IMG/VR virus record: IMGVR_UViG_3300017971_007886
Location: 1-64,000 of that record
Strand: one strand, 5' to 3'
DNA length: 64,000 nucleotides
From: a virus
The translations under genes and the position numbers were made by a program. The notes beneath the pieces are model-generated. The model made no database searches and had not been told where the DNA came from. It saw nothing but the letters and a program-made list of their open reading frames with translations. Positions 22,093 through 47,061 of the stretch are shown here, piece after piece. Each line of letters opens with the position of its first letter. The first letter of the stretch is position 1.

Positions 22093-22497
22093 ATGGGCAA
22101 TCGTAGGTACATCATCACGAAGACGTTTCGGTTCGACTCTGCGCATCAGTTGTTCAAGATGCCAGCGGACCATCCGTGTCACCAGCTCCACGGTCACACG
22201 TACACGGTGGATGTCACGTTGTCCTCGTTGGGTTTGGACGACCGGGACATGGTGCTCGATCTCAACGTGTTCAGGGAACTCAAGAGCGTTCTCGACCACG
22301 CAAACCTGAATGATGTGATCCCGTCCGAGTATGGACAGCCTACCTCCGAGGTCTTGTGCAAGTACATCTGGGACTGGATCGACCGTCAGATTTGGGAACG
22401 GCTAGGCCCCGAGGGTCGGAAGGAGGTAGCCATTGGCAGAGTCGGAGTCCAAGAGACTCCCAACAACCGTACCGAGCTGGTACTGGAGGTAGAATGA
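22093..22497 (+). CDS. queD: 6-carboxy-5,6,7,8-tetrahydropterin synthase
   Basis: FDSAHQL, CHQLHGHTY, LDHANLN, PTSE, QETP. Confidence 0.93.
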   Translation: MGNRRYIITKTFRFDSAHQLFKMPADHPCHQLHGHTYTVDVTLSSLGLDDRDMVLDLNVFRELKSVLDHANLNDVIPSEYGQPTSEVLCKYIWDWIDRQIWERLGPEGRKEVAIGRVGVQETPNNRTELVLEVE

Positions 22498-23656: not shown

Positions 23657-24258
23657 CGGTACCGAAACAGATTCAGTCGGCAGTGAAGTCACTGTTGAAC
23701 TGGTGTGGCACCTACCAAGCAGAGGAGCAATACTTCCAAGACCTGGATCTGGAGGAAACTCCTGCGAGAATGGCCCGGATGTGGAAGCACGAATTGTTGT
23801 CGTCCTACAGGCCGGGAGCGTTTGAGGAGCTGGTAGATCGATTCACCACGTTCGAGTTGAAGGAGCTGGCCCCGAGGGAGATGATCGTTCAGGGTGACAT
23901 CCAGTTCTACTCGCAGTGTTGTCACCACATGGTCCCGTTCTTTGGGAGTGTCGCTGTTGGGTACATTCCAAAGGACAAGATCGTCGGTCTGTCGAAGATC
24001 GCACGAGTGGTTGACCACTTTGCGAAGCAACTACAACTCCAAGAGAGATTGACATCCCAGGTAGCGGACTTTCTCATGGAGCATCTGACACCAGCGGGGG
24101 TGATCGTGGTTGTGAAGGCCGAGCACCTTTGTATGACCATGCGTGGGGTACAGAAGCCCGGTACCATCACAGTTACTTCGGCATTGAGAGGGAACACCGT
24201 TGACAACCCCACCGTTCAACAGGAGTTCTACCGGCTCATTGGCATGGTACACTCCTAG
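23557..24258 (+). CDS. folE: GTP cyclohydrolase I (start uncertain)
   Basis: ETPARMA, SQCCHHMVPF, VGLSKIAR, QLQERLT, AEHLCMTMRGV. Confidence 0.93.
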   Translation: MGTKRDEPSGIKVRLSDTREGDTADTRPGWRPVAVPKQIQSAVKSLLNWCGTYQAEEQYFQDLDLEETPARMARMWKHELLSSYRPGAFEELVDRFTTFELKELAPREMIVQGDIQFYSQCCHHMVPFFGSVAVGYIPKDKIVGLSKIARVVDHFAKQLQLQERLTSQVADFLMEHLTPAGVIVVVKAEHLCMTMRGVQKPGTITVTSALRGNTVDNPTVQQEFYRLIGMVHS

Positions 24259-36136: not shown

Positions 36137-37111
36137 ATGAAGACATTCACGCAACAAGAACTTGAGAAGATGAGCCTTTTGGAGATCCGAAAGGTTGCCC
36201 GCAAATTGGGAATCACTGACATCGCTGGTAAGCGACAGAACGAAATCGTCAGGAAGATTCTAACCAAGCAAAAGCCCGGTGGCGTGGACCCACGGGTGAA
36301 GCCGAAGGAGGCTGCGGCGGCCAAGAAGAAGACCAAGGCCGAGCCCAAGCCCAAGGCTGCGAAGAAGACCAAGGCCAAGACCAAGGCTGCTCCAAAAGAG
36401 GACATCGAAGAGCCAACGTTCTCTGGTACACTGGAGCAGAGGGTGGCGCGAATCGAGATGGCCTTGGTGGGGGCAGGGATCATGGATGCGAAGATGGACA
36501 AGAAGAAGCCAGCAACGAAGACGCCGCCCAGCGTGGAGCAAGCGGTATTGCCGAGTGAGTGGTTCGACGAGGATGGGAATCTCTCGCTCACGCCAGAGGA
36601 CATCGAGTCGATGAACTTCGATTCCATCCTGGCAGTCAACAACCTCTTGGGTGACTACGCCGCCGACATCCCTGAGTCGCAAAGGAAGACGCCACGACTC
36701 GCGAGGATGCGGTTGGTTCAGGCACTCAGGAAGATCGGTGATGTCGAACAAGGGGAGGGTGACGACGAGCCAGAAGAGGAAGGTGAGCTGGTGGAAATCG
36801 AGCCCAACGAAGAAAGCCCGTTCCCGCCCGAGGAGGTCGGAGACCAGTGCTACATCAAGGACGAGAAAGGCCGGTGGTTTGCGGGGCTCGTCGTTGACAT
36901 CTCCGAGAAGGATGGAGAGCCCTGGTACCTCATTCGCTACACCGTTGGCGATGCGGTGATCGAGGAAGAGGTCGATGTCGAGGAGCTGAAGCCTTGGGAG
37001 CCCGACGAGGAGGAAGAGGCAGAGGACGAGGAAGGCGAAGAGGAAGAGTACGAAGAAGAGGACGAGGCTGAAGAGGAAGAAGAAGAGTACGAAGAAGACG
37101 AAGACGAGTAG
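36137..37111 (+). CDS. Rho-N-like + Tudor/SH3-like protein with poly-acidic tail
   Basis: ELEKMSLLEIRKVARKLGI..KRQNEIVRKI; VGDQCYIK..WFAGLVV..WYLIRY; TTGACA at 36098. Confidence 0.65.
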   Translation: MKTFTQQELEKMSLLEIRKVARKLGITDIAGKRQNEIVRKILTKQKPGGVDPRVKPKEAAAAKKKTKAEPKPKAAKKTKAKTKAAPKEDIEEPTFSGTLEQRVARIEMALVGAGIMDAKMDKKKPATKTPPSVEQAVLPSEWFDEDGNLSLTPEDIESMNFDSILAVNNLLGDYAADIPESQRKTPRLARMRLVQALRKIGDVEQGEGDDEPEEEGELVEIEPNEESPFPPEEVGDQCYIKDEKGRWFAGLVVDISEKDGEPWYLIRYTVGDAVIEEEVDVEELKPWEPDEEEEAEDEEGEEEEYEEEDEAEEEEEEYEEDEDE

Positions 37112-37156: not shown

Positions 37157-37421
37157 GTGCTTGGAGGTTGAGATGCGATGGAGACCGAACGATGGGTAGC
37201 CTAGCACCACGGAGCCGGAAGGGTTTCATGGTGCTGATGAATGTGCCGATGCCCAAGAGCGGGCGTTGCATGTTCTGTAAACGTACTGTCCCAATTAAGG
37301 CCAAAGTCATAAGCTGTGATCATGCCCCACCTACTGGATTCGCCTGTGCTGAGTGTACTCGCCAGCGATTCCTTCCTACCGATGGCTCGCCCGAGCCCGA
37401 CTTCTTCCGAAAGAGCTAACG

Positions 37422-39497
37422 ATGACGCGAATCTACCTTGCCGGTGCGGAGAGTGGTCCGCTCTCAGATGAGCTAGAAGAGAACAACGTCAAGCACATCC
37501 TCTACTCCTATTTCTGGTTGTCGAAGAAGGATCGGGAGAGGGTGATGGTCGAACGCATAAAACGAGGTCGGGAGAATGGTATCAAATACCTGCTCGACTC
37601 GGGTGCGTTCACCTACCTCGATGCCCAACAGGCGGGCTCGCGACTCCCCTTCAACGTCTACAAGAAGAGGTACTTTGACTTCATTGCCAAGCACGGTGAG
37701 TTGTTCGAGGCGTGCGCGGAACTCGATGTCGAAGGTGCTGAGATAGACGGGATGGGTACAATCTCCCTCGACCAGGTGTGGCACTGGCGACAACAGATGT
37801 TCGAGGCTAACCCGAAAGCCACCATCATGCCCGTCTGGCACTTCGGTACTCGTACCCAAGAAGAGTGGAACACGCTTTGTGAAGATCCTCTCGTCACCTA
37901 CCTTGGAATCGGAAGTACCCACAGCGGCGCAGTCTTCAATCAAGAAGGAGTATTCCACAGGCTCATTGCGAAGGCCCATGCCCACGGCAAGCGGGTACAC
38001 GGAATGGCCGCGACCAAGGTGAAGACGCAGTTGAAGAAACTCAAGTTCGACAGCGTAGACAGCGCCTCCTGGCTATCTGCCCAGAAGTTCGGTACGACGT
38101 TCATCTTCAAAAACGGGCAATGGATAGTTCTGGACAAGTACAAGAAGAACCAACGCAGAATCCATCGACGCCACTTCACCAAGATCGGCGTGGACTACCA
38201 AAAACTCGAAGCAGACAAGAGTAGCGAATTACGCCATGCAGCGATATTGGCGTGGAGAGACCTGGGAGAGTGGCTGATGAAGAAACGGGCCAAGATGCAC
38301 CAAGACCTGGAAGACCAAATTGCGGCTACACCTCAAGTAGACCCAGAAGTGCCACAGGAGAAGAAAGTGCCAGCTACGAAGAAGGCCAAGAAGTCCAAAA
38401 ACAAGGTACCAATCAAGGTACCCGCAAAGGTACTTTCAGGGGTACCGGCACCCCAAAAACCACCTCGCGGGAAGGCAAAATCGAGTGGTGAAGTCTTCAA
38501 AATACCGTGTCCCAGTTTTGGACAAAAAGCAGACGACGGTGCGGTAAAAAGGGGCCGAAGGGGTCGAAAACGCACATTTGCGCGGACCCCAATTACGACC
38601 AGCTCGCGGGATGGAAAACAGACTCCCAAGGTCAACGATAAAGCCACTTCTATGGATAAGGGAGACCCTACAGAAAAGGCCCCTGATAAAGGTACCCCGT
38701 ATCTCGAAGAGGTACCCCAACCTACGCTACCCCAGGAGCCAGTGTCTCAGGACGCACTTGCTACGGTAGAGCAGCCAGATAGCACACTTCCTACCTGGAA
38801 ACGCCCTGATTATCTACACAAGACCGAGAAGCAGAGGTCGCTACTCCATGATCTACCACAACTGAAGTGTGGGCTGTGCTCCATAGGTACTGATTGCCCG
38901 TCCTATGATGAGTCACTACAACAGTGTGCCTTTGCTGAAAGGCTCAATGCGTTTCCAGTACGTGATGCGGACAATCTACTGGGTGCTATGGAGTACATTG
39001 TAGATGTCAACAAGTCGCGGCTATGGAAACTACTTCTCATGGAGAACATGATCGAAGGCGGTATGCCAAGCGAACGTGCTACGCAACTTTCTGAGATTGT
39101 ACTGAACCAGCTCGAACGGCTCAGAGAACAAAGAACCATGATGGAAGGCGCTGCTGTGAAAGTCAATTCTGGACCCGGTATTCTAAGCTCCATATTTGGG
39201 GTCTCTGGAAGGGGGTCTGTGGGGGGTACGGCAGTACAGGTAAATATACAGAACGCCCCAGCTCGCGGCGCAGATGTACGTGATGATAATCCTGCCAATA
39301 GTGGGATTGTAGTGGAAGCACAGACAGTACCCCATAATGTACCTACAGAAGAGGGTACCCCTACTGCGGCTACTGATGCGCAAGTAGTAGAAGCTGAAAC
39401 AGAGAATGAAGTACCTAGTTCTGGCGAATCAGGTAGCAAAGCTGACACAGGTACCACAGGAGAGGACGCCCCCTCGGGCAAGGGGGTGGGGGGTTAA
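37422..39497 (+). CDS. TGT/DpdA-like transglycosylase domain fused via a disordered linker to a Cys4 helical domain (possible TerS)
   Basis: IYLAG, LLDSGAFT, ELDV, PVWH, VHGM, DSVDSASW; C-terminal CGLC-x5-CPSY-x6-C and GILSSIFG. Confidence 0.7.
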   Translation: MTRIYLAGAESGPLSDELEENNVKHILYSYFWLSKKDRERVMVERIKRGRENGIKYLLDSGAFTYLDAQQAGSRLPFNVYKKRYFDFIAKHGELFEACAELDVEGAEIDGMGTISLDQVWHWRQQMFEANPKATIMPVWHFGTRTQEEWNTLCEDPLVTYLGIGSTHSGAVFNQEGVFHRLIAKAHAHGKRVHGMAATKVKTQLKKLKFDSVDSASWLSAQKFGTTFIFKNGQWIVLDKYKKNQRRIHRRHFTKIGVDYQKLEADKSSELRHAAILAWRDLGEWLMKKRAKMHQDLEDQIAATPQVDPEVPQEKKVPATKKAKKSKNKVPIKVPAKVLSGVPAPQKPPRGKAKSSGEVFKIPCPSFGQKADDGAVKRGRRGRKRTFARTPITTSSRDGKQTPKVNDKATSMDKGDPTEKAPDKGTPYLEEVPQPTLPQEPVSQDALATVEQPDSTLPTWKRPDYLHKTEKQRSLLHDLPQLKCGLCSIGTDCPSYDESLQQCAFAERLNAFPVRDADNLLGAMEYIVDVNKSRLWKLLLMENMIEGGMPSERATQLSEIVLNQLERLREQRTMMEGAAVKVNSGPGILSSIFGVSGRGSVGGTAVQVNIQNAPARGADVRDDNPANSGIVVEAQTVPHNVPTEEGTPTAATDAQVVEAETENEVPSSGESGSKADTGTTGEDAPSGKGVGG

Positions 39498-39561
39498 GCA
39501 CTCGCACCTTAGAAGTAGGGGCTCAGTGATCTACAGAATAAGCAAAAAGCTAGGAGGGCAC

Positions 39562-39981
39562 ATGCCGAAATCGGGCGGGACATCGAGGGAGAGTGAGCGG
39601 GGAGACCTCAGCTCACTTTCGACGACGGGTCAGGTACTCAAAAATGAATCGCTACGCGAAGCGTTGGCCTCCTGGGAGCATCATCGGTGGGCGTCCTGGC
39701 AGGGGTACTTCCATGGAAAATGTGAGCGACAGCCTGACGGCTCCCTGGTGATCCCAGCGGAGTACGTGCGGGCCTTGGGCAGGTTGATGTACCTGGCCTA
39801 TTCGGAGTTGACCGAGGAGGAGAAGGGGCTGGACCGCAAGGAAGCAGACCGGATCATCGCGATTGTGGAGACGTACCTGGGTGGGCAAGTGACCGAGGGT
39901 CGCGGGAGGGTCGAAAGTGGGTCGGATCAGGGTCAAATGAGCCCCTGGCGAGGTACCGTCCCCAAAAGTACCCCAAAATGA
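39562..39981 (+). CDS. divergent RyR-like protein
   Basis: EHHRWASW...AYSELTEEEKGLDR. Confidence 0.5.
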   Translation: MPKSGGTSRESERGDLSSLSTTGQVLKNESLREALASWEHHRWASWQGYFHGKCERQPDGSLVIPAEYVRALGRLMYLAYSELTEEEKGLDRKEADRIIAIVETYLGGQVTEGRGRVESGSDQGQMSPWRGTVPKSTPK

Positions 39982-39997
39982 CCGCTAGGAGAGCAAA

Positions 39998-40252
39998 ATG
40001 AGCAGACATCCGATTGGTGAGTACCTACTCGTTGAGAAGTTGCAGAGGGAAGCAAACCGCAAAACGGACCAGTGGAAGGTCTACGGACTGCACGACAACC
40101 TACTGGGCTTGATCAAGTGGTTTGGCCGGTGGCGTCAGTACACGTTCTTTCCGGCTGCGGGTACCGTTTTCAATAGTACCTGCCTACTGGACCTCAAAAT
40201 GCACCTCGATTGGGTGAACAAGGAGTGGCGGGAGGCGAAACGCAATGGGTGA
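39998..40252 (+). CDS. hypothetical protein
   Basis: AGGAG RBS; WRQYTFFP. Confidence 0.55.
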   Translation: MSRHPIGEYLLVEKLQREANRKTDQWKVYGLHDNLLGLIKWFGRWRQYTFFPAAGTVFNSTCLLDLKMHLDWVNKEWREAKRNG

Positions 40253-40484
40253 CATCACGTACTTGGGTACCTGCAAGGGGAACAACCTGCGGGAAGCGGC
40301 GGATATGGCGGATCAAGGTGACATCACCCACGCAGTAGTCGCGTACCGGACAGAAGGGGGAGAACTCAAGTACCGGCTGATCGGGGAAGAAGACCTGACG
40401 TACCTGATCGGCCTGTTGGAACGCACGAAGGTACACATGCACTGTTCGGCGGCCTACGTGATACCCGGCGGGGAAGGAGAATAG

Positions 40485-40994
40485 ATGGCAAAGAGAGCGA
40501 AACAGGATGTGACACTACGATCACACCAGTACGACGGCAGCGGGTGGGGTACAGGTACCACCTTGGCGGATCTACAAGACGAGCGGCCCGCAAAGAAGTA
40601 CCGCCCGCAAGGAGACAAAGCCACCTTGCCGGTCGCGAAAAACCCAGGACGCATTGAGAATCGTACCCCACTCCCAGATCGTACCGCCGAATACTGTTGT
40701 CAAGGGTGCAAGAACCCACTAGCGGCGCGGGAGGTCAATATACTCCTGGCTATCGAGAATCAGCCGCGAAGATTTTGTTGCTGGCCCTGTTTCGTCGCAT
40801 GGGTGAATGACCCCGATAGCGCCCTCAACCAAAATTTGGACCAAAAGCCCGCTCTGTACCAAGTGCCCATGTACCCCTCTCACTCAAAAAACTGCCCCAT
40901 TTGTCCAGATGAGCAAATTGACCATCAAACAGTCCCGAGTGTGAAGATGATCAAAAAGACCAAGCAGCCCAAAAGTAGGAGAAAGACCAAATGA
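40485..40994 (+). CDS. Zn-finger hypothetical protein
   Basis: CQGC...FCCWPC...CPIC. Confidence 0.5.
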   Translation: MAKRAKQDVTLRSHQYDGSGWGTGTTLADLQDERPAKKYRPQGDKATLPVAKNPGRIENRTPLPDRTAEYCCQGCKNPLAAREVNILLAIENQPRRFCCWPCFVAWVNDPDSALNQNLDQKPALYQVPMYPSHSKNCPICPDEQIDHQTVPSVKMIKKTKQPKSRRKTK

Positions 40995-41368
40995 GCCCGA
41001 AACTACTCGCAGACGCGCTAGTTGCCGCTGACGTAGTACAGCCAGAGAACCACCCCGATTCGGTTGAGCGACGGCAACTCGTCAAAGGGTGGATCAAGGC
41101 CATACGGTGGGTGTGGAAGCAACCGAAGAGTTGGGTGTACCAGACGTGGGAGCCCAACAAAGACCGCAGACCACCATATCCGCCTCCGAAGTTCCTCGAC
41201 GAGCATCGCGTCCGAATGGTCTCCTTCGCGTTTTACCGTGGGAAGGACGGTGCGCCCTACTTGGGCGATATTCGCATGGCCCTCGAATCGATCAACATCG
41301 CTGATCAACAGTACATCTGCGATGCGGTCGCATCTCACTATGAGACGTGGGAGACCAAGAATGGATAG
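40991..41368 (+). CDS. hypothetical protein
   Basis: ATGA-coupled ORF. Confidence 0.5.
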   Translation: MSPKLLADALVAADVVQPENHPDSVERRQLVKGWIKAIRWVWKQPKSWVYQTWEPNKDRRPPYPPPKFLDEHRVRMVSFAFYRGKDGAPYLGDIRMALESINIADQQYICDAVASHYETWETKNG

Positions 41369-41880
41369 GCGGTATCATCTCGCTCCCTGCGCCATCAAGC
41401 CGAATGGCGAGATTTGGGAGCATCCCACTTTTCGGTATGTGGTGCCCGAAGCGGAGCTGGCCTTCAAGTACCCTCATCGGAACTTTCGGTATGCGAAGGC
41501 TGGGGACTACATCGGCCTAGTTCTGTCCAGTACCGGCACGAAAGTAGATTTCCAGATCACCACCAACCACCCAAACATGACCGACCCGGCTTGGTTGAAG
41601 CGGGTCACTTTCATAACCAGAGTGATTGCAGTCCAAGACAAAGGAGAGTTCTGATGCCACGCAAGATTGACAATGACCACCAGTTGAGGCGAGCCCCGCA
41701 CAGTACCAAGAAGGTCAAGAGGGGAAGACAGGTCGAACTCAAGTCGGCTGTGAAGGTGAGCGACCCGGTGATGTTGTCCGAGATGCTTGCCTCCATCGCC
41801 AACGACGAGCGCCTTGAGGCCGACATCCAGTTGCTTCCCGGTACCTACGTCATCACGGCCATCGTGGACGTGAAGAGTTT

Positions 41881-42390
41881 GTGATGCCTGGCATCTGGGA
41901 CCAAGTAGAGGCCCTTGTGGCAGAAGGGAAGGGTGCGACGATCACGTTGACCGAGGCGCACGAGGTCAAGATCCCGTACCAGCGAAAGAAGCTCCCGAAG
42001 AAGTACGTCCACAAGGACCGTCCATGGGAAACCTACGACGGTTGCACGCGAGGGACAGGCCGCCCTCGGTGCCAATGGAAAGGGTGCAACACCTACCTGA
42101 AGAAAGATCAACCGGTGGCGTGCTGCATCGAACACGAACAGAAGATTGCCGACTACTGCATACGGATGTTGGCCGTGATACGGTACCGTATAGTGGATCG
42201 GTTGGACGACTACGACGAGTTGCTTCACGGTGACTCGGTGGTAGCCAAGTTCTTGGAGGAATTGAAAGATGGCACACTACTTAACGTCAATGGAAACTCT
42301 CAACCTCCTTCAGCAGGAGACGAAGGAGGACCAGAAGAGGAACCAACGGAGACAGCAAGCGATAGCCCTGGTGTCGAGGACGACGGGTAG
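41881..42390 (+). CDS. hypothetical protein
   Basis: CQWKGC...CCIEH. Confidence 0.5.
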   Translation: MMPGIWDQVEALVAEGKGATITLTEAHEVKIPYQRKKLPKKYVHKDRPWETYDGCTRGTGRPRCQWKGCNTYLKKDQPVACCIEHEQKIADYCIRMLAVIRYRIVDRLDDYDELLHGDSVVAKFLEELKDGTLLNVNGNSQPPSAGDEGGPEEEPTETASDSPGVEDDG

Positions 42391-42519
42391 GCCCCAGCAC
42401 GACTTCGGTGCGCGTGATTGGGCCTTGGTCCAAGCGCATGAACAACGAATGGAGAAGGCCGACAAACCACCGGCCCCTCGCAGGGCCACGTTCTCCATCG
42501 ACCCGAGCGGGAGAGCCGT

Positions 42520-43098
42520 ATGAAGATCGAAGCTGACAGACCTGAACGAGTCCTAGCCAACTTGCGTGGGATTGAGATTGACCCAGAAACAGATGCAGCC
42601 AAGATCAAGTGGTCTCACTACGAAGGCACTCCGGGTGGTGGAGTGATCGAGGTGGTCGAGGAGCACACCTACACGTTCGATGACCCCGTACTTCGCGGGA
42701 TCACGAAAGAGCTTCACGACTACCTGGTCGAGTGTATCGAGAGGGACGAGCAACAGCCTCACGAGGAGAACTCGTGTGAGACGTGTACGACTCAGAACTG
42801 CTGTTCGAGCGACTTCTCAGAACCACTGTGGTTGACCCAGAGCGACATCGAAATGTTGGAGCTGGATGACGACCAGGTGTGTTTCCTCGGTGAAGGCCAC
42901 TGGGCCGGAAAGGGAGGTGGCAGTTGGGATGGGAATGACGATCCAGCGTGCAGCGACATCATTGGGTACATGGTCCGTGATCCGTGGTGCCCTCTTCTCG
43001 AAAATGGGAAGTGCTCGAAGTATGGTGTTCGCCCGCTTTCGTGCCGACTTGGCCCAGAGCGGAATTGCGGAATCAAAGACCTAGATAAGGAGACCTGA
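42520..43098 (+). CDS. YkgJ-family CxxCxxCC (Zn/Fe-S) protein
   Basis: CETCTTQNCC...CPLLENGKCSKYGVRPLSCR. Confidence 0.75.
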   Translation: MKIEADRPERVLANLRGIEIDPETDAAKIKWSHYEGTPGGGVIEVVEEHTYTFDDPVLRGITKELHDYLVECIERDEQQPHEENSCETCTTQNCCSSDFSEPLWLTQSDIEMLELDDDQVCFLGEGHWAGKGGGSWDGNDDPACSDIIGYMVRDPWCPLLENGKCSKYGVRPLSCRLGPERNCGIKDLDKET

Positions 43099-43100
43099 TC

Positions 43101-43799
43101 ATGGCAACAGTCGCGTACAGCGGTGGGATCGACAGCACCGTCCTCATGTACGAGTTGGCCTCTCAAGGCCGCCTCAACCTGGCGGTACTCTGCAACTTCG
43201 GACAGCCATCGTTTGATCGACAGCTTCGTTGTGCGGAGTATCAGATCGCCAAACTCGAAGAGCATGGCGTGGATGTCCACTTCCGGGTGGTGGAGTTCAA
43301 GACGCCCGAGGAGTTCCAGGTCAAGGAGGCTTCTCCGTTCTTCTCGATGCGGCCTCTGAACCCACTGGCCAAGGCACCAAAGAAAATGAAGGACGCCATC
43401 GCGTATCGACTCGATAACTTCGCCATCACCCCAGGACGGAACGCTTTCATGGTCTTGATGGTTGGGATGGTCGCGGCGGCCTTGGAGACGAACCCGGCAG
43501 TGGTCACGGCGTACCAGTACGAACAGGACATCTGGGATACGCAGGACACCATCTCAGGGGACGAGTCGCCCTCGTTCTGGTTGAAGATGGGCATGGTTTT
43601 GGAGACGGCCTTCGAGGTACCTGTGGCGCTTGAGAACCCGTTCTTGGATCGTCATTGGGACAAGGAGCGCATCATCCGTGAGGGTATCGAGTACGGAATC
43701 GACTTCGCACACACGATGTCCTGCGAATTTGAGGAGCCCTGCGGCGAGTGCGCCCAGTGCCAACTGGTCAAGAAGACGGTTGCCAAAACCAGGGGCTAG
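43101..43799 (+). CDS. divergent QueC-like PP-loop ATPase (paralogue 1)
   Basis: YSGGIDS, NFGQ, PGRN, GDESPSF, MSC..PCGECAQC. Confidence 0.85.
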   Translation: MATVAYSGGIDSTVLMYELASQGRLNLAVLCNFGQPSFDRQLRCAEYQIAKLEEHGVDVHFRVVEFKTPEEFQVKEASPFFSMRPLNPLAKAPKKMKDAIAYRLDNFAITPGRNAFMVLMVGMVAAALETNPAVVTAYQYEQDIWDTQDTISGDESPSFWLKMGMVLETAFEVPVALENPFLDRHWDKERIIREGIEYGIDFAHTMSCEFEEPCGECAQCQLVKKTVAKTRG

Positions 43800-43924
43800 A
43801 ACGTAATATGGAGTCTGAACATGGCGTGCGGGCTCTTGGAGCGAAAACGTAGACCTCCAATCCCAGGCCAAAACTGAGCTGGAGTCAAAACAACAACCTC
43901 CACTCAAACAGAAGGAGATGCCAA

Positions 43925-44038
43925 ATGGCACGAGGAAAGAAGAGAGCCTACAAAATGACCACCAAGGGCAAGCGAACCAAGGCGTTCAAGCCCCTCTTCG
44001 GAAAGAAGAAGGTCAAGGGCGGCAAGGGCGGCAAGTAG
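43925..44038 (+). CDS. 37-aa Lys/Gly-rich peptide A
   Basis: AAGGAG RBS; MARGKKRAYKMTTKGKRTKAFKPLFGKKKVKGGKGGK. Confidence 0.7.
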   Translation: MARGKKRAYKMTTKGKRTKAFKPLFGKKKVKGGKGGK

Positions 44039-44041
44039 GTC

Positions 44042-44152
44042 ATGGCCCGTGGGAAGAAGACGCTGGTGAAGCGTCTCAAGACCAAGGCCGGGGCCGTACT
44101 GCGCCGACTCTTCGGCAAGAAGAAGGTCACGGGAGGTAAAGGCGGCAAGTAG
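44042..44152 (+). CDS. 36-aa Lys/Gly-rich peptide B (paralogue of A)
   Basis: MARGKKTLVKRLKTKAGAVLRRLFGKKKVTGGKGGK; differences from A in the conserved blocks are mostly synonymous. Confidence 0.7.
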   Translation: MARGKKTLVKRLKTKAGAVLRRLFGKKKVTGGKGGK

Positions 44153-44234
44153 CGCCTGAACCAAACGTGGGCTGCTCTTGGTAGTTCTGACGCCGAGACT
44201 TGAGAACTGCCGCTTTCCCGATTAAGAAGATGCC

Positions 44235-45971
44235 ATGTTCAATGACCAAGTTGCTGCCCAAGATACCCAACCCGAGTTACTGAGAACCTGCCCCCTCACA
44301 GACAAAGAGCTGATCGACAAGGTTCTGATCTTCGTCGAGGAGTTCACGCGACCAAAGCGCGTCGGTAAGGCAGACCTCTACACCTACCAGAAGGTGTTCG
44401 CCCGCCGCATCATCGAATCGGTGGTACTGGCCGAAGGCGACACCATCACTGCTCTCTTCTCTCGACAGGCCGGAAAGACTCAGACCGTTGCCGACGTTGC
44501 GGTCTCGCTTTGCGTCATCCTCCCTGTCTTGGCCCGAGAGTTCCCCGACGACACCCGGCTCAAGTCGTTCTCTGCCGGGTTCTGGGTCGGTATCTTCGCA
44601 CCAGTCATGGACCAGGCAGGTATCTCGTTCAGTCGCATGAGAGCCCTGGCCTCCTCACCAGAGGGTGAGGCTGTGTTCCGTGACCCAGAGATCAACATCG
44701 AGTTGACCACTGACCGTGGCGATGAGCTTGGGTGGAGTACCGGTAGCGTGGTGCGATCCAAGTCTGCGAGCCCTGACACACAGATCGAGGGCAAGACCTA
44801 CCACCTCATCCTCTGCGACGAGGCCCAGAAGCTCCTTCGGTCCAAGGTCGAAAAAGAGATCATGCCGATGTTGGCCGCGACCGCAGGTACGATGGTCAAG
44901 ATCGGTACTGCCTGGGAGAGTCGCGGCGGCTTCCATACAGACATCCAGTACAACGTTCAAGCGTACAGCGACGGTGGCAGACGGAACCATTTCGAGTTCG
45001 ACTACAAGATGGTGCTCGCGGAGAAGCGGGCGGCCTACGACCGGGATGGTAACCCGTTCCACCTGAACTACGAGAAGTACATCGAGAAGCAGATCAAGCG
45101 ACTCGGCGGCACTGAGAATGAAGAGTTCAAGATGAACTTCATGCTCAAGTGGTTGGAGAGTCGTATCATCGCCATCAAGGCATCGACCCTCATGGCCGGT
45201 CGAGAGAAGCGCCACATTGGCGAGCTGCCCATGCCGAGGAATGGTCATGTCCTGGTTGCGGGGCTCGACGTTGCGAAGTCGAACGACAGTACCGTCCTTA
45301 CGCTCACCGACATAGACTTGGACAATCCCATCGTGGACATCTCCAAATACGGCACACCTCACGACAAGATCGGTACCATCCAGGGAGAGAGCGAGCAGAA
45401 CTACTTCTACATGAAGCGAGTGGTCGCGTGGTTGGAGTTGCAAGGGACGTTCGAGGGTGACACTGGCCAGTACCAACGTGTGCTCGACTTCCTGATGAGG
45501 TTCCCTCCTTTGTCCATGTTCCTTTGCGACGCGACTGGCATGGGCGATCCCGTGTACGAGCGGTTCACGGTGTTGCTACCTGACATCGACGTTCAGCCGT
45601 TCAAGTACAGCGCCCCCTCGAAGTCCGACCTCTACAAATACTACCTGCAAGAGTGGTCCTCTCGTCGGTTCAAGTATCCTGCCGATGCCGCTGCTCAAGA
45701 AACGCCTGAGTTCCAGAAGTTCGAGACACAGCATTTGGACCTAGACAAAATCTCCTCTGGCAACTACATCTCGTGCGTAGCCCCCGAAGATGAGCATGAC
45801 GACTACCCGGACTCGGCGGCCCTGGCGTGTTGGGCCGAGAAGATTCTCAAGAAAGACGCTATGCCATTTATCGAAGTGAGTGGTGTACCTGATGGTGGAG
45901 CGCGTGATAGGAGTCAGCAATCCTCCGGTTATAGTAACCGGCAGATGCGGTACATGAGAGGACGAAGATGA
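44235..45971 (+). CDS. terL: terminase large subunit
   Basis: YQ, SRQAGKT, LILCDEAQ, IGT, GLDVAKSND, DATGMG, HDDYPDS. Confidence 0.92.
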   Translation: MFNDQVAAQDTQPELLRTCPLTDKELIDKVLIFVEEFTRPKRVGKADLYTYQKVFARRIIESVVLAEGDTITALFSRQAGKTQTVADVAVSLCVILPVLAREFPDDTRLKSFSAGFWVGIFAPVMDQAGISFSRMRALASSPEGEAVFRDPEINIELTTDRGDELGWSTGSVVRSKSASPDTQIEGKTYHLILCDEAQKLLRSKVEKEIMPMLAATAGTMVKIGTAWESRGGFHTDIQYNVQAYSDGGRRNHFEFDYKMVLAEKRAAYDRDGNPFHLNYEKYIEKQIKRLGGTENEEFKMNFMLKWLESRIIAIKASTLMAGREKRHIGELPMPRNGHVLVAGLDVAKSNDSTVLTLTDIDLDNPIVDISKYGTPHDKIGTIQGESEQNYFYMKRVVAWLELQGTFEGDTGQYQRVLDFLMRFPPLSMFLCDATGMGDPVYERFTVLLPDIDVQPFKYSAPSKSDLYKYYLQEWSSRRFKYPADAAAQETPEFQKFETQHLDLDKISSGNYISCVAPEDEHDDYPDSAALACWAEKILKKDAMPFIEVSGVPDGGARDRSQQSSGYSNRQMRYMRGRR

Positions 45972-46396
45972 AGCCAGCAGACGTATTGAACCTACTCCCC
46001 AGGTACCTGGTTCGAGCGGCCCGCATCAACAACATCATCCCGTCTGATCGCCCCAAGCAGTACAACGAGACAGCCCAATACGAGCACATCACTCGGAACA
46101 TTTACGTTGTACCCAACCTTCCGGCAGAGGTCATGCGCCGGTCGATGATTCACGAGATCGCCCACGCCCTTGACGACAACTTCGGTGTCGGGCACTACTT
46201 TGGAGAATCACCAGCCTGGGCAGAGTTGTCGAGGCGAATGTATGGCGACGTGTCTGTGGTCGAAACCTTCGCTGAGAACATGGCGACCCACTTGTTGGAC
46301 CCCACGTTCTCTCGCATGGTGAATCCATCCGTTGCCAAGTTCATGGATGAAGCGTTGACCTATTTGCAGATCATGTTCAAAGGAAAGACCCAATGA
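45968..46396 (+). CDS. zincin-like metallopeptidase
   Basis: HEIAHALD and ETFAE. Confidence 0.7.
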   Translation: MKPADVLNLLPRYLVRAARINNIIPSDRPKQYNETAQYEHITRNIYVVPNLPAEVMRRSMIHEIAHALDDNFGVGHYFGESPAWAELSRRMYGDVSVVETFAENMATHLLDPTFSRMVNPSVAKFMDEALTYLQIMFKGKTQ

Positions 46397-47061
46397 CCAA
46401 AGAAGAGAGCAAGTTGGTATTCTGTTCGTGTAGTGGTGGCCTCGATTCGAGCGTGATGGTCCAAAAGCTCGAAAATGAAGGGTACTACCCGATCCCCATC
46501 TTCATCGACTACGGCCAGAAGACGGCAATCGTCGAGTTCGACCGCCTTCGCCAGGTGTGGCCGAAGTGCAAACTCATTCGATTCGACCTCATGGGTGGCA
46601 TCCGGTGTTGGGCCACCAATCCGGGGGACCAGTTCATCCCCACCCCGAAGCGTGAACGCGATTTGATGTTCATCCCTGGCAGGAACATCTTCTTCCTGAC
46701 GAGGCTGGCCGTCGAGGCGTACTACTTCCACGCCCATTACCTCGCACTCGGGAACAACACCGATGACCTCACATGCGGAGACTGCAAGCCTCCGTTCTTG
46801 GAGTCGATGGCCAAGTCCCTCACTCTCGGCATGTCCACCCGTGATGCGGGCGAGTACGAGTACGAGATCCTTCAACCCTTTGGTGACATGAGCAAAGCCG
46901 ACATCGTTCGGTACGGCCATGACCACGGGGTAGCCATCGAGAAAACATGGAGTTGTTACGATTTCCAAGAGAAGCATTGTGGGGTATGCTGGAACTGTGT
47001 GGAAAGGAAGCACGCCTTTGAGAAGGCGGGCGTTGAAGACAAGACAGGCTACATAGAGTAG
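46393..47061 (+). CDS. queC: 7-cyano-7-deazaguanine synthase (paralogue 2, closer to canonical)
   Basis: SGGLDS, DYGQ, FIPGRNIFF, DCKPPF, TWSCY..HCGVCWNCVER. Confidence 0.88.
   Translation: MTKEESKLVFCSCSGGLDSSVMVQKLENEGYYPIPIFIDYGQKTAIVEFDRLRQVWPKCKLIRFDLMGGIRCWATNPGDQFIPTPKRERDLMFIPGRNIFFLTRLAVEAYYFHAHYLALGNNTDDLTCGDCKPPFLESMAKSLTLGMSTRDAGEYEYEILQPFGDMSKADIVRYGHDHGVAIEKTWSCYDFQEKHCGVCWNCVERKHAFEKAGVEDKTGYIE

Follow-up and report, generated by a model that had tools for sequence, protein, structure and literature searches.

In the first 64,000 bases of the IMG/VR virus record IMGVR_UViG_3300017971_007886 (hereafter the window), we analyzed a gene whose 691-residue product joins an N-terminal domain of the DpdA/tRNA-guanine transglycosylase (TGT) type to a C-terminal module with four cysteines and a helical hairpin. 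This second module is an autonomous, widespread and previously unnamed Cys4-hairpin unit. Profile comparisons show that the module is homologous to the C-terminal half of proteins encoded in the slot before the large terminase gene (terL) of other phages, where the identity as small terminase (TerS) is itself positional. The reading that we rank as most likely, at a probability of roughly 40%, is that the module is a small-terminase-like assembly core of this phage group. The complete record comprises 92,966 bases, is classed as a provirus in IMG/VR and has an estimated completeness of 98%.

Anatomy of the gene and its DpdA-type barrel

According to the open reading frame (ORF) list and its translation, the gene runs from an ATG at 37422 to a stop codon ending at 39497 (Table 1); a GTG at 37353 would provide a longer alternative start but is less plausible. 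The product matches phrog_887, a profile labelled queuine tRNA-ribosyltransferase that spans both the barrel and the C-terminal module, with an E value of 5e-41, residues 1–597 aligning with profile positions 9–477 of 509. A first-pass annotation made from the sequence alone had divided the protein into a barrel, a Lys/Pro-rich linker and a Cys4 plus helical domain, and the ORF, motifs, composition and alignments bear out this three-part anatomy. The linker (residues 298–470) has the composition then described (15% Lys, 13.9% Pro, net charge +14), varies in length and sequence, cannot be aligned among relatives and is probably disordered. As an internal start for expression of the module alone, a GTG at 38742 is unconvincing, with AGGAG only 3 nt upstream.

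An AlphaFold2 model of residues 1–297, built from an alignment of 23 relatives, reached a predicted local distance difference test (pLDDT) value of 90 and a predicted template modelling (pTM) score of 0.88. All of the top 25 matches to this model in a Foldseek search of the PDB were TGT enzymes (E values 2e-6 to 2e-5, template modelling scores around 0.6), with bacterial, eukaryotic and archaeal tRNA-guanine transglycosylases among the best. Tblastn searches with the gene product reached phage genes annotated as DpdA-like transglycosylase. Three motifs in the barrel, DSGAF (D59–F63), VHG (H193–G194) and VDSASW (D213–W217), are invariant or near-invariant among relatives. Together with the phrog_887 match, the model, its TGT top matches and the motifs confirm the TGT-type TIM-barrel domain of about 300 residues that had been proposed. 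Pfam and NCBIfam scans of the barrel, the Pfam TGT model included, returned nothing above noise; membership in the TGT/DpdA group rests on PHROG 887, the tblastn matches to annotated DpdA genes and the fold.

Bacterial DpdA has three catalytic aspartates (PMC10164549). Mapped by motif rather than by superposition, D59, D102 and D213 of the window protein fit these residues; D59 and D213 are invariant across relatives, D102 is nearly so, and D59 with F63 four residues on resembles the pair Asp95 and Phe99 of bacterial DpdA. The bacterial enzyme (Salmonella Montevideo, PDB 7UI4) and tRNA-guanine transglycosylases have the TIM-barrel fold and the conserved base-exchange aspartates in common with the window barrel. 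Unlike bacterial DpdA, the window barrel has no DpdB partner gene, carries an unrelated C-terminal module and lacks the structural zinc site CxCx2Cx22H, which is absent from residues 1–297 and likewise from the short mycobacteriophage DpdA Funsized gp3. Sequence and model suggest that the barrel is an active-looking DpdA-family DNA guanine transglycosylase, its activity being predicted. Phage DpdA enzymes shield phage DNA from restriction.

The fusion of barrel and module is neither unique nor obligatory, being the usual domain arrangement in PHROG 887. Both modules are found in one protein in Bacillus phage BCD7 (gp021), the BRock group of Streptomyces phages, several IMG/VR contigs and three metagenome contigs, and those locus searches with the module that gave matches returned fused forms only. 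In the four closest IMG/VR relatives (L002–L005), barrel and module are separate ORFs 0.4–4.7 kb apart, divided by genes mostly of unassigned function, while the two genes are adjacent in Bacteroides phage BS162P1 and in MT835482. Such separate ORFs in the closest relatives are what would be expected if the long ORF were an artefact in which a frameshift or assembly error had run two adjacent genes together. We regard this as highly improbable, since fusion is found independently in BCD7 and BRock-like phages, in contigs L006, L007, L012 and L059, in the three metagenome contigs and in the homologues P0003–P0007 and P0010, and since the phrog_887 profile itself covers both parts.

The PHROG 887 DpdA genes of BCD7 (gp021), BRock, Alone3 and GiJojo (the latter three termed ‘DpdA-like’) show the same two-module architecture and conserved motifs as the window gene, and their genomes also carry Que-pathway genes. 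The window gene differs from these relatives in the sequences of its linker and tail, in its position 4.7 kb upstream of terL and in having QueC-like genes on both sides of terL. The C-terminal module goes unmentioned in published accounts of the DpdA subfamilies (PMC10516641). As a separate observation, two loci, L094 (11850–14090, MT835482.1) and L099 (2139–5366), contain an insertion of ~400 residues in the DpdA barrel at profile positions ~207–210, beside the VDS nucleophile motif. This insertion looks like an intein, and the representatives P0079 and P0115, with 1136 and 1152 residues, may be similar forms.

A Cys4-hairpin module shared with proteins of the terminase slot

Residues ~471–592 are conserved even in relatives with 24% overall identity. 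The module consists of the motif line LPxLxC-x2-C-x5-CP-x-Y-x5/6-C, a helical hairpin whose GG turn is invariant, and the peptide GILSSIFG. In an alignment of 11 module sequences, four Cys (C-x2-C-x5-C-x8/9-C), an Arg, a Glu and the GG turn are invariant and are followed by a GILSxLFG-like peptide; in a larger alignment of 145 sequences, one Cys is invariant and the other three are conserved in at least 90%. The codon of the first motif Cys, C483, begins exactly at nucleotide 38868, and AlphaFold2 predicts a long hairpin with confidence (module residues 52–112), in agreement with the earlier placement of a Cys4 and helical domain near this position. The Cys region itself was modelled without confidence. 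GILSxLFG was also considered as a sliding-clamp-binding motif and rejected, its spacing being off the pattern usually given for such motifs, QL[SD]LF.

To 1.84 billion representatives, a profile of the module gave matches in 1323 clusters at E ≤ 1e-3 and in 624 at E ≤ 1e-10, and in the proteins retrieved the module always lies near the C terminus. We classified 157 proteins, comprising 145 from the profile search and 12 from the first homology search. A DpdA barrel is also present in 55 of these; the remaining 102, without barrel, are 86 to 967 residues long, and Pfam scans of the N-terminal parts of 49 longer ones among them identified no domain. Gene miscalling may have cut some of the seemingly standalone representatives out of fusions; P0027, for one, maps to a gene of the fused type.

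The four-Cys motif is a putative metal-binding site, and the module a candidate for oligomerization. One explanation of the motif is that the Cys hold an iron–sulfur cluster, the module then being a DNA-sensing domain that finds or checks target sites like the [4Fe-4S] domains of DNA glycosylases. The four Cys are all invariant, most members have Pro directly after the third (C-x2-C-x5-CP), a pattern that recalls ferredoxin-type motifs, and base flipping and exchange by the partner enzyme has a parallel in the glycosylases. However, the spacing fits no defined iron–sulfur family among those testable, there is no Pfam match, the Cys region has no confident AlphaFold2 fold and a simple zinc-binding motif would account for the pattern just as well. 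We consider an iron–sulfur sensor improbable.

The connection to terminase emerged from module proteins without a DpdA barrel. Standalone module proteins match the C-terminal part of PHROG 887 as well as phrog_6902, which is labelled small terminase (best E value 3e-9). With these proteins as queries, tblastn retrieved proteins of 460–470 residues from phages of Gordonia, Tsukamurella and Rhodococcus, and the genes for GTE7 gp001, Demosthenes gp09 and Reynauld gp14 are located directly upstream of terL and the portal gene. Residues ~300–414 of the actinophage proteins aligned in hhalign with the window's family at a probability of 95.8% (E = 7e-9) and with standalone module members at one of 97.4% (E = 9e-12). 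GTE7 gp001 additionally matches phrog_16015 and, weakly, phrog_887. The proteins of the terL slot, represented by phrog_6902, phrog_16015 and the three actinophage examples, thus share a homologous Cys4 motif and helical region with the window protein, the link of the module to the two PHROGs being visible only by profile–profile comparison and through intermediate sequences. The actinophage proteins differ from the window protein in lacking the GILSxLFG peptide, in their site directly before terL and in an N-terminal part of ~290 residues that is unrelated to DpdA and contains no Pfam domain.

In known small terminases, a variable DNA-binding part at the N terminus is followed by a helical hairpin core and then a tail, a layout that the two-module protein resembles. 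Characterized TerS proteins (T4-type gp16, HK97, P22 and SPP1) have this general layout in common with the window protein and show no sequence homology to it; we know of none among them with a Cys4 motif or an enzyme domain.

Possible roles of the module and the position of terL

In the small-terminase reading, the barrel would swap guanine in phage DNA for a 7-deazaguanine supplied by the QueD, FolE-like and QueC-like genes of the phage itself. The basic linker of ~170 residues, disordered in this model, would tether the module to the barrel, the hairpin would drive oligomerization, and the C-terminal peptide and tail would bind a partner protein, probably TerL. Where a small terminase usually has its N-terminal DNA-binding domain, this protein would have the DpdA barrel and basic linker, and the base-exchange enzyme would thereby sit on DNA being readied for packaging. 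A contact with TerL and a coupling of modification to packaging are what this arrangement would imply. A broader version appears doubtful to us, namely that in a phage clade spanning hosts of several bacterial phyla the small terminase swapped its DNA-binding domain for a base-exchange enzyme, so that the packaging machine came to include the 7-deazaguanine writer physically, DNA would have to pass through this complex to be both modified and packaged, and the Que genes around terL would belong to the same module.

Consistent with a TerS role, no competing candidate was detected in this phage or in its relatives. The ORFs between the gene and terL (39406–44139) gave no TerS match in PHROGs or Pfam, and the 93-kb record contains no match to the standard families Terminase_2, Terminase_4 or GP3_package, which upholds the earlier observation that no other TerS candidate is evident before terL. 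In the annotations of BCD7 and Alone3, no small terminase is named. The TerL type of the window was found in exactly 10 of 50,697 phage records, all of which contain the DpdA barrel and the module; named among these ten are BCD7, five BRock-like phages, BS162P1 and MT835482. This co-occurrence could fit a TerS role and could equally well arise by common descent.

Besides this ambiguity, several results weigh against the terminase assignment. The actinophage homologues owe their small-terminase label to the position of their genes (PMC4524720), and SEA-PHAGES records mostly call these proteins hypothetical. The window protein has no direct match to phrog_6902 or phrog_16015, no experimentally characterized TerS family homologous to the module was found in Pfam or in PDB sequence searches, and the module shows no sequence match to any Pfam family or solved structure. 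Foldseek and VIA searches with the module model yielded generic helical hairpins only; T4-type TerS proteins (44RR gp16 and T6 TerS) appeared at Z 7.3 among many unrelated rows that scored no worse, and an Atlas lead to T5_Terminase_small had a score of 0.83, below trust level. Gene position adds to these points. The window gene is not adjacent to terL, and ~ten ORFs lie in the 4.7 kb that separate the two on the same strand. In relatives, the distance amounts to 12–60 kb, with values of 12.7, ~16.7 and 39.5 kb in related contigs, and in BCD7 and Alone3 the gene is located among nucleotide-metabolism genes, tens of kb from terL. A location directly upstream of terL was found for the actinophage homologues only. 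In addition, the DpdA protein of split forms ends with a GI[LV]SxLF-like peptide of its own; its presence on both split proteins suggests a shared docking partner, which need not be TerL, although so short a motif provides a lead only. The proposal in the first-pass annotation of a possible small terminase domain at the C terminus therefore stands in part: homology to terL-slot proteins was found and no rival TerS was detected, while the label remains positional, no characterized TerS was matched and the gene is distant from terL.

Several of these data also suit a role of the module outside packaging, as an accessory of the modification enzyme. It might be an oligomerizing or DNA-tethering unit, comparable to DpdB, or might serve in docking to the replisome or to a different host factor, and would then raise the reach or processivity of DpdA on replicated DNA, with the actinophage proteins upstream of terL being other DNA-acting enzymes that bear the same module. 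The fusion or adjacency of module and DpdA in Bacillus, Streptomyces and Bacteroides phages and many metagenomic contigs points in this direction, as do the location of the gene there with Que and nucleotide-metabolism genes far from terL, the short GI[LV]SxLF-like peptide that split DpdA proteins share with the module, and the N-terminal ~290 residues of the actinophage proteins, of unassigned fold and far larger than the usual TerS DNA-binding domain. Furthermore, bacterial DpdA requires its partner DpdB (PMC10164549). Yet most phage DpdA genes do without the module, which was located within 10 kb in only 12 of 82 sources (80 DpdA loci, BCD7 and the window), and it is missing from short DpdA proteins, for example gp3 of mycobacteriophage Funsized. 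The module also occurs in actinophages with no detected DpdA of this type, where it comes first in the packaging operon. We hold an accessory role to be a serious, still tentative alternative to the small-terminase-like core.

Packaging-site signals, neighbouring genes and significance

The first-pass annotation had additionally taken an AT-rich shift in the 3' half of the gene, clusters of GTAC and a terminal G-run as signs of a pac or cut site overlapping the gene. Each signal has a factual basis. GTAC occurs 530 times in the window, 3.4-fold above the 156 expected from dinucleotide shuffles, and its local density in the last 630 bases of the gene is 19 per kb compared with 8.3 per kb, within the top 2% of windows. 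Trinucleotide content, however, predicts 519 occurrences, and the dense zone extends past the gene to ~40.3 kb; the clusters are therefore real and locally dense but not specific to the gene. GC content falls to 0.498 at 38814–39257, compared with a mean of 0.568 over the window (z = −2.7, lowest 0.2% of windows). This confirms the lower-GC patch in part, but the dip is absent from the same domain in nine relatives. The G-runs at 39482–39493, with which the gene indeed ends, are read as codons for Gly-Val-Gly-Gly, and the record contains no terminal repeat. With GTAC enriched window-wide and the GC dip missing in relatives, these signals lend no support to the pac reading, and none of them points to a packaging site. 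Two further compositional features were noted. TA is the rarest dinucleotide in the window (1692 occurrences), with 31% of TA located inside GTAC, often as GGTACC. Only three patches of the 93-kb record have a 300-base GC content below 0.49, and one of them, at 38800–39260, coincides with the C-terminal module; as the dip is not seen in relatives, this patch may mark a recent exchange of the module.

Genes of the 7-deazaguanine pathway are scattered over the genome (Table 1), with QueD and a FolE-like match ~14 kb upstream of the DpdA gene. In the window (42520–47061) and in three relatives (L082, L083 and L084), terL is embedded among such genes. The slot before terL is occupied in related contigs by FolE-like and QueC-like genes, and in L083 a FolE-like domain (phrog_5949, E = 2.6e-33) resides in the same 809-residue open frame as TerL. 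Given QueD, the FolE-like match and two QueC-like genes, the phage would be expected to make its own 7-deazaguanine for insertion into DNA. Homologues of the window terL occur at 39–50% identity in related viral contigs.

Immediately ahead of terL, the window encodes a YkgJ-like Cys-cluster protein, a QueC-like protein and two Lys-rich micropeptides. The latter, tandem peptides of 37 and 36 residues encoded at 43925–44152, both end in LFGKKKVxGGKGGK, the LFG of which resembles the GILSxLFG peptide of the C-terminal module; no such tandem was found upstream of terL in three relatives. Directly upstream of the DpdA gene, the gene at 36137–37111 encodes an N-terminal Rho_N-like helical domain (PF07498, E = 8.7e-6) with no further assignable function. 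In Mycobacterium phage Funsized, gene 1 at the left genome end (L086, 1–1299), annotated as ‘ParB-like nuclease domain protein’, contains DUF6610 (PF20314, E = 4.9e-32); it lies next to another DpdA-like gene, the second there, and to the Que genes, shortly before the terminase. The DUF6610 family has reportedly been tied to the DpdA4 subfamily.

Table 1 Features of the DpdA gene and associated genes in the window.
Feature	Position	Strand	Basis
Whole gene, 691 residues: DpdA-like domain, basic linker, Cys4/hairpin module and acidic Gly-rich tail	37422..39497	+	ORF/translation; phrog_887
TGT/DpdA-type TIM-barrel, residues 1–297; candidate catalytic D59, D102 and D213	37422..38312	+	AlphaFold2, Foldseek, invariant residues, tblastn
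Lys/Pro-rich linker, residues 298–470	38313..38831	+	Composition; no alignment between relatives
Conserved C-terminal module, residues ~471–592	38832..39197	+	Alignments, profile search, AlphaFold2, hhalign
Variable acidic Gly/Val/Ala/Thr-rich tail, residues 593–691, net charge −10	39198..39494	+	Sequence, composition
Large terminase gene terL	44235..45971	+	phrog_2, E = 1.9e-16; phrog_9, E = 4.2e-10
QueC-like gene upstream of terL, where TerS would be expected, with the two micropeptide ORFs between	43101..43799	+	phrog_1550, E = 9.8e-21
Second QueC-like gene, downstream of terL	46393..47061	+	phrog_1550, E = 3e-39
QueD (PTPS)	22114-22476		E = 9.6e-28
Weak FolE-like match	23902-24117		E = 1.8e-5

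Prevailing accounts treat DpdA as a free-standing enzyme that acts after replication, and we found no paper linking DpdA to terminase. Our analysis shows a large DpdA subfamily that is always accompanied by an uncharacterized four-Cys helical module, the same module that fills the small-terminase position elsewhere. As a terminase subunit, the module would found a new TerS family, supply the missing TerS of several phage groups and be the first instance in which DNA modification is built into the packaging motor. Otherwise, it would still be a widespread, unannotated partner domain of DNA-modifying enzymes, with more than 1300 representative clusters.

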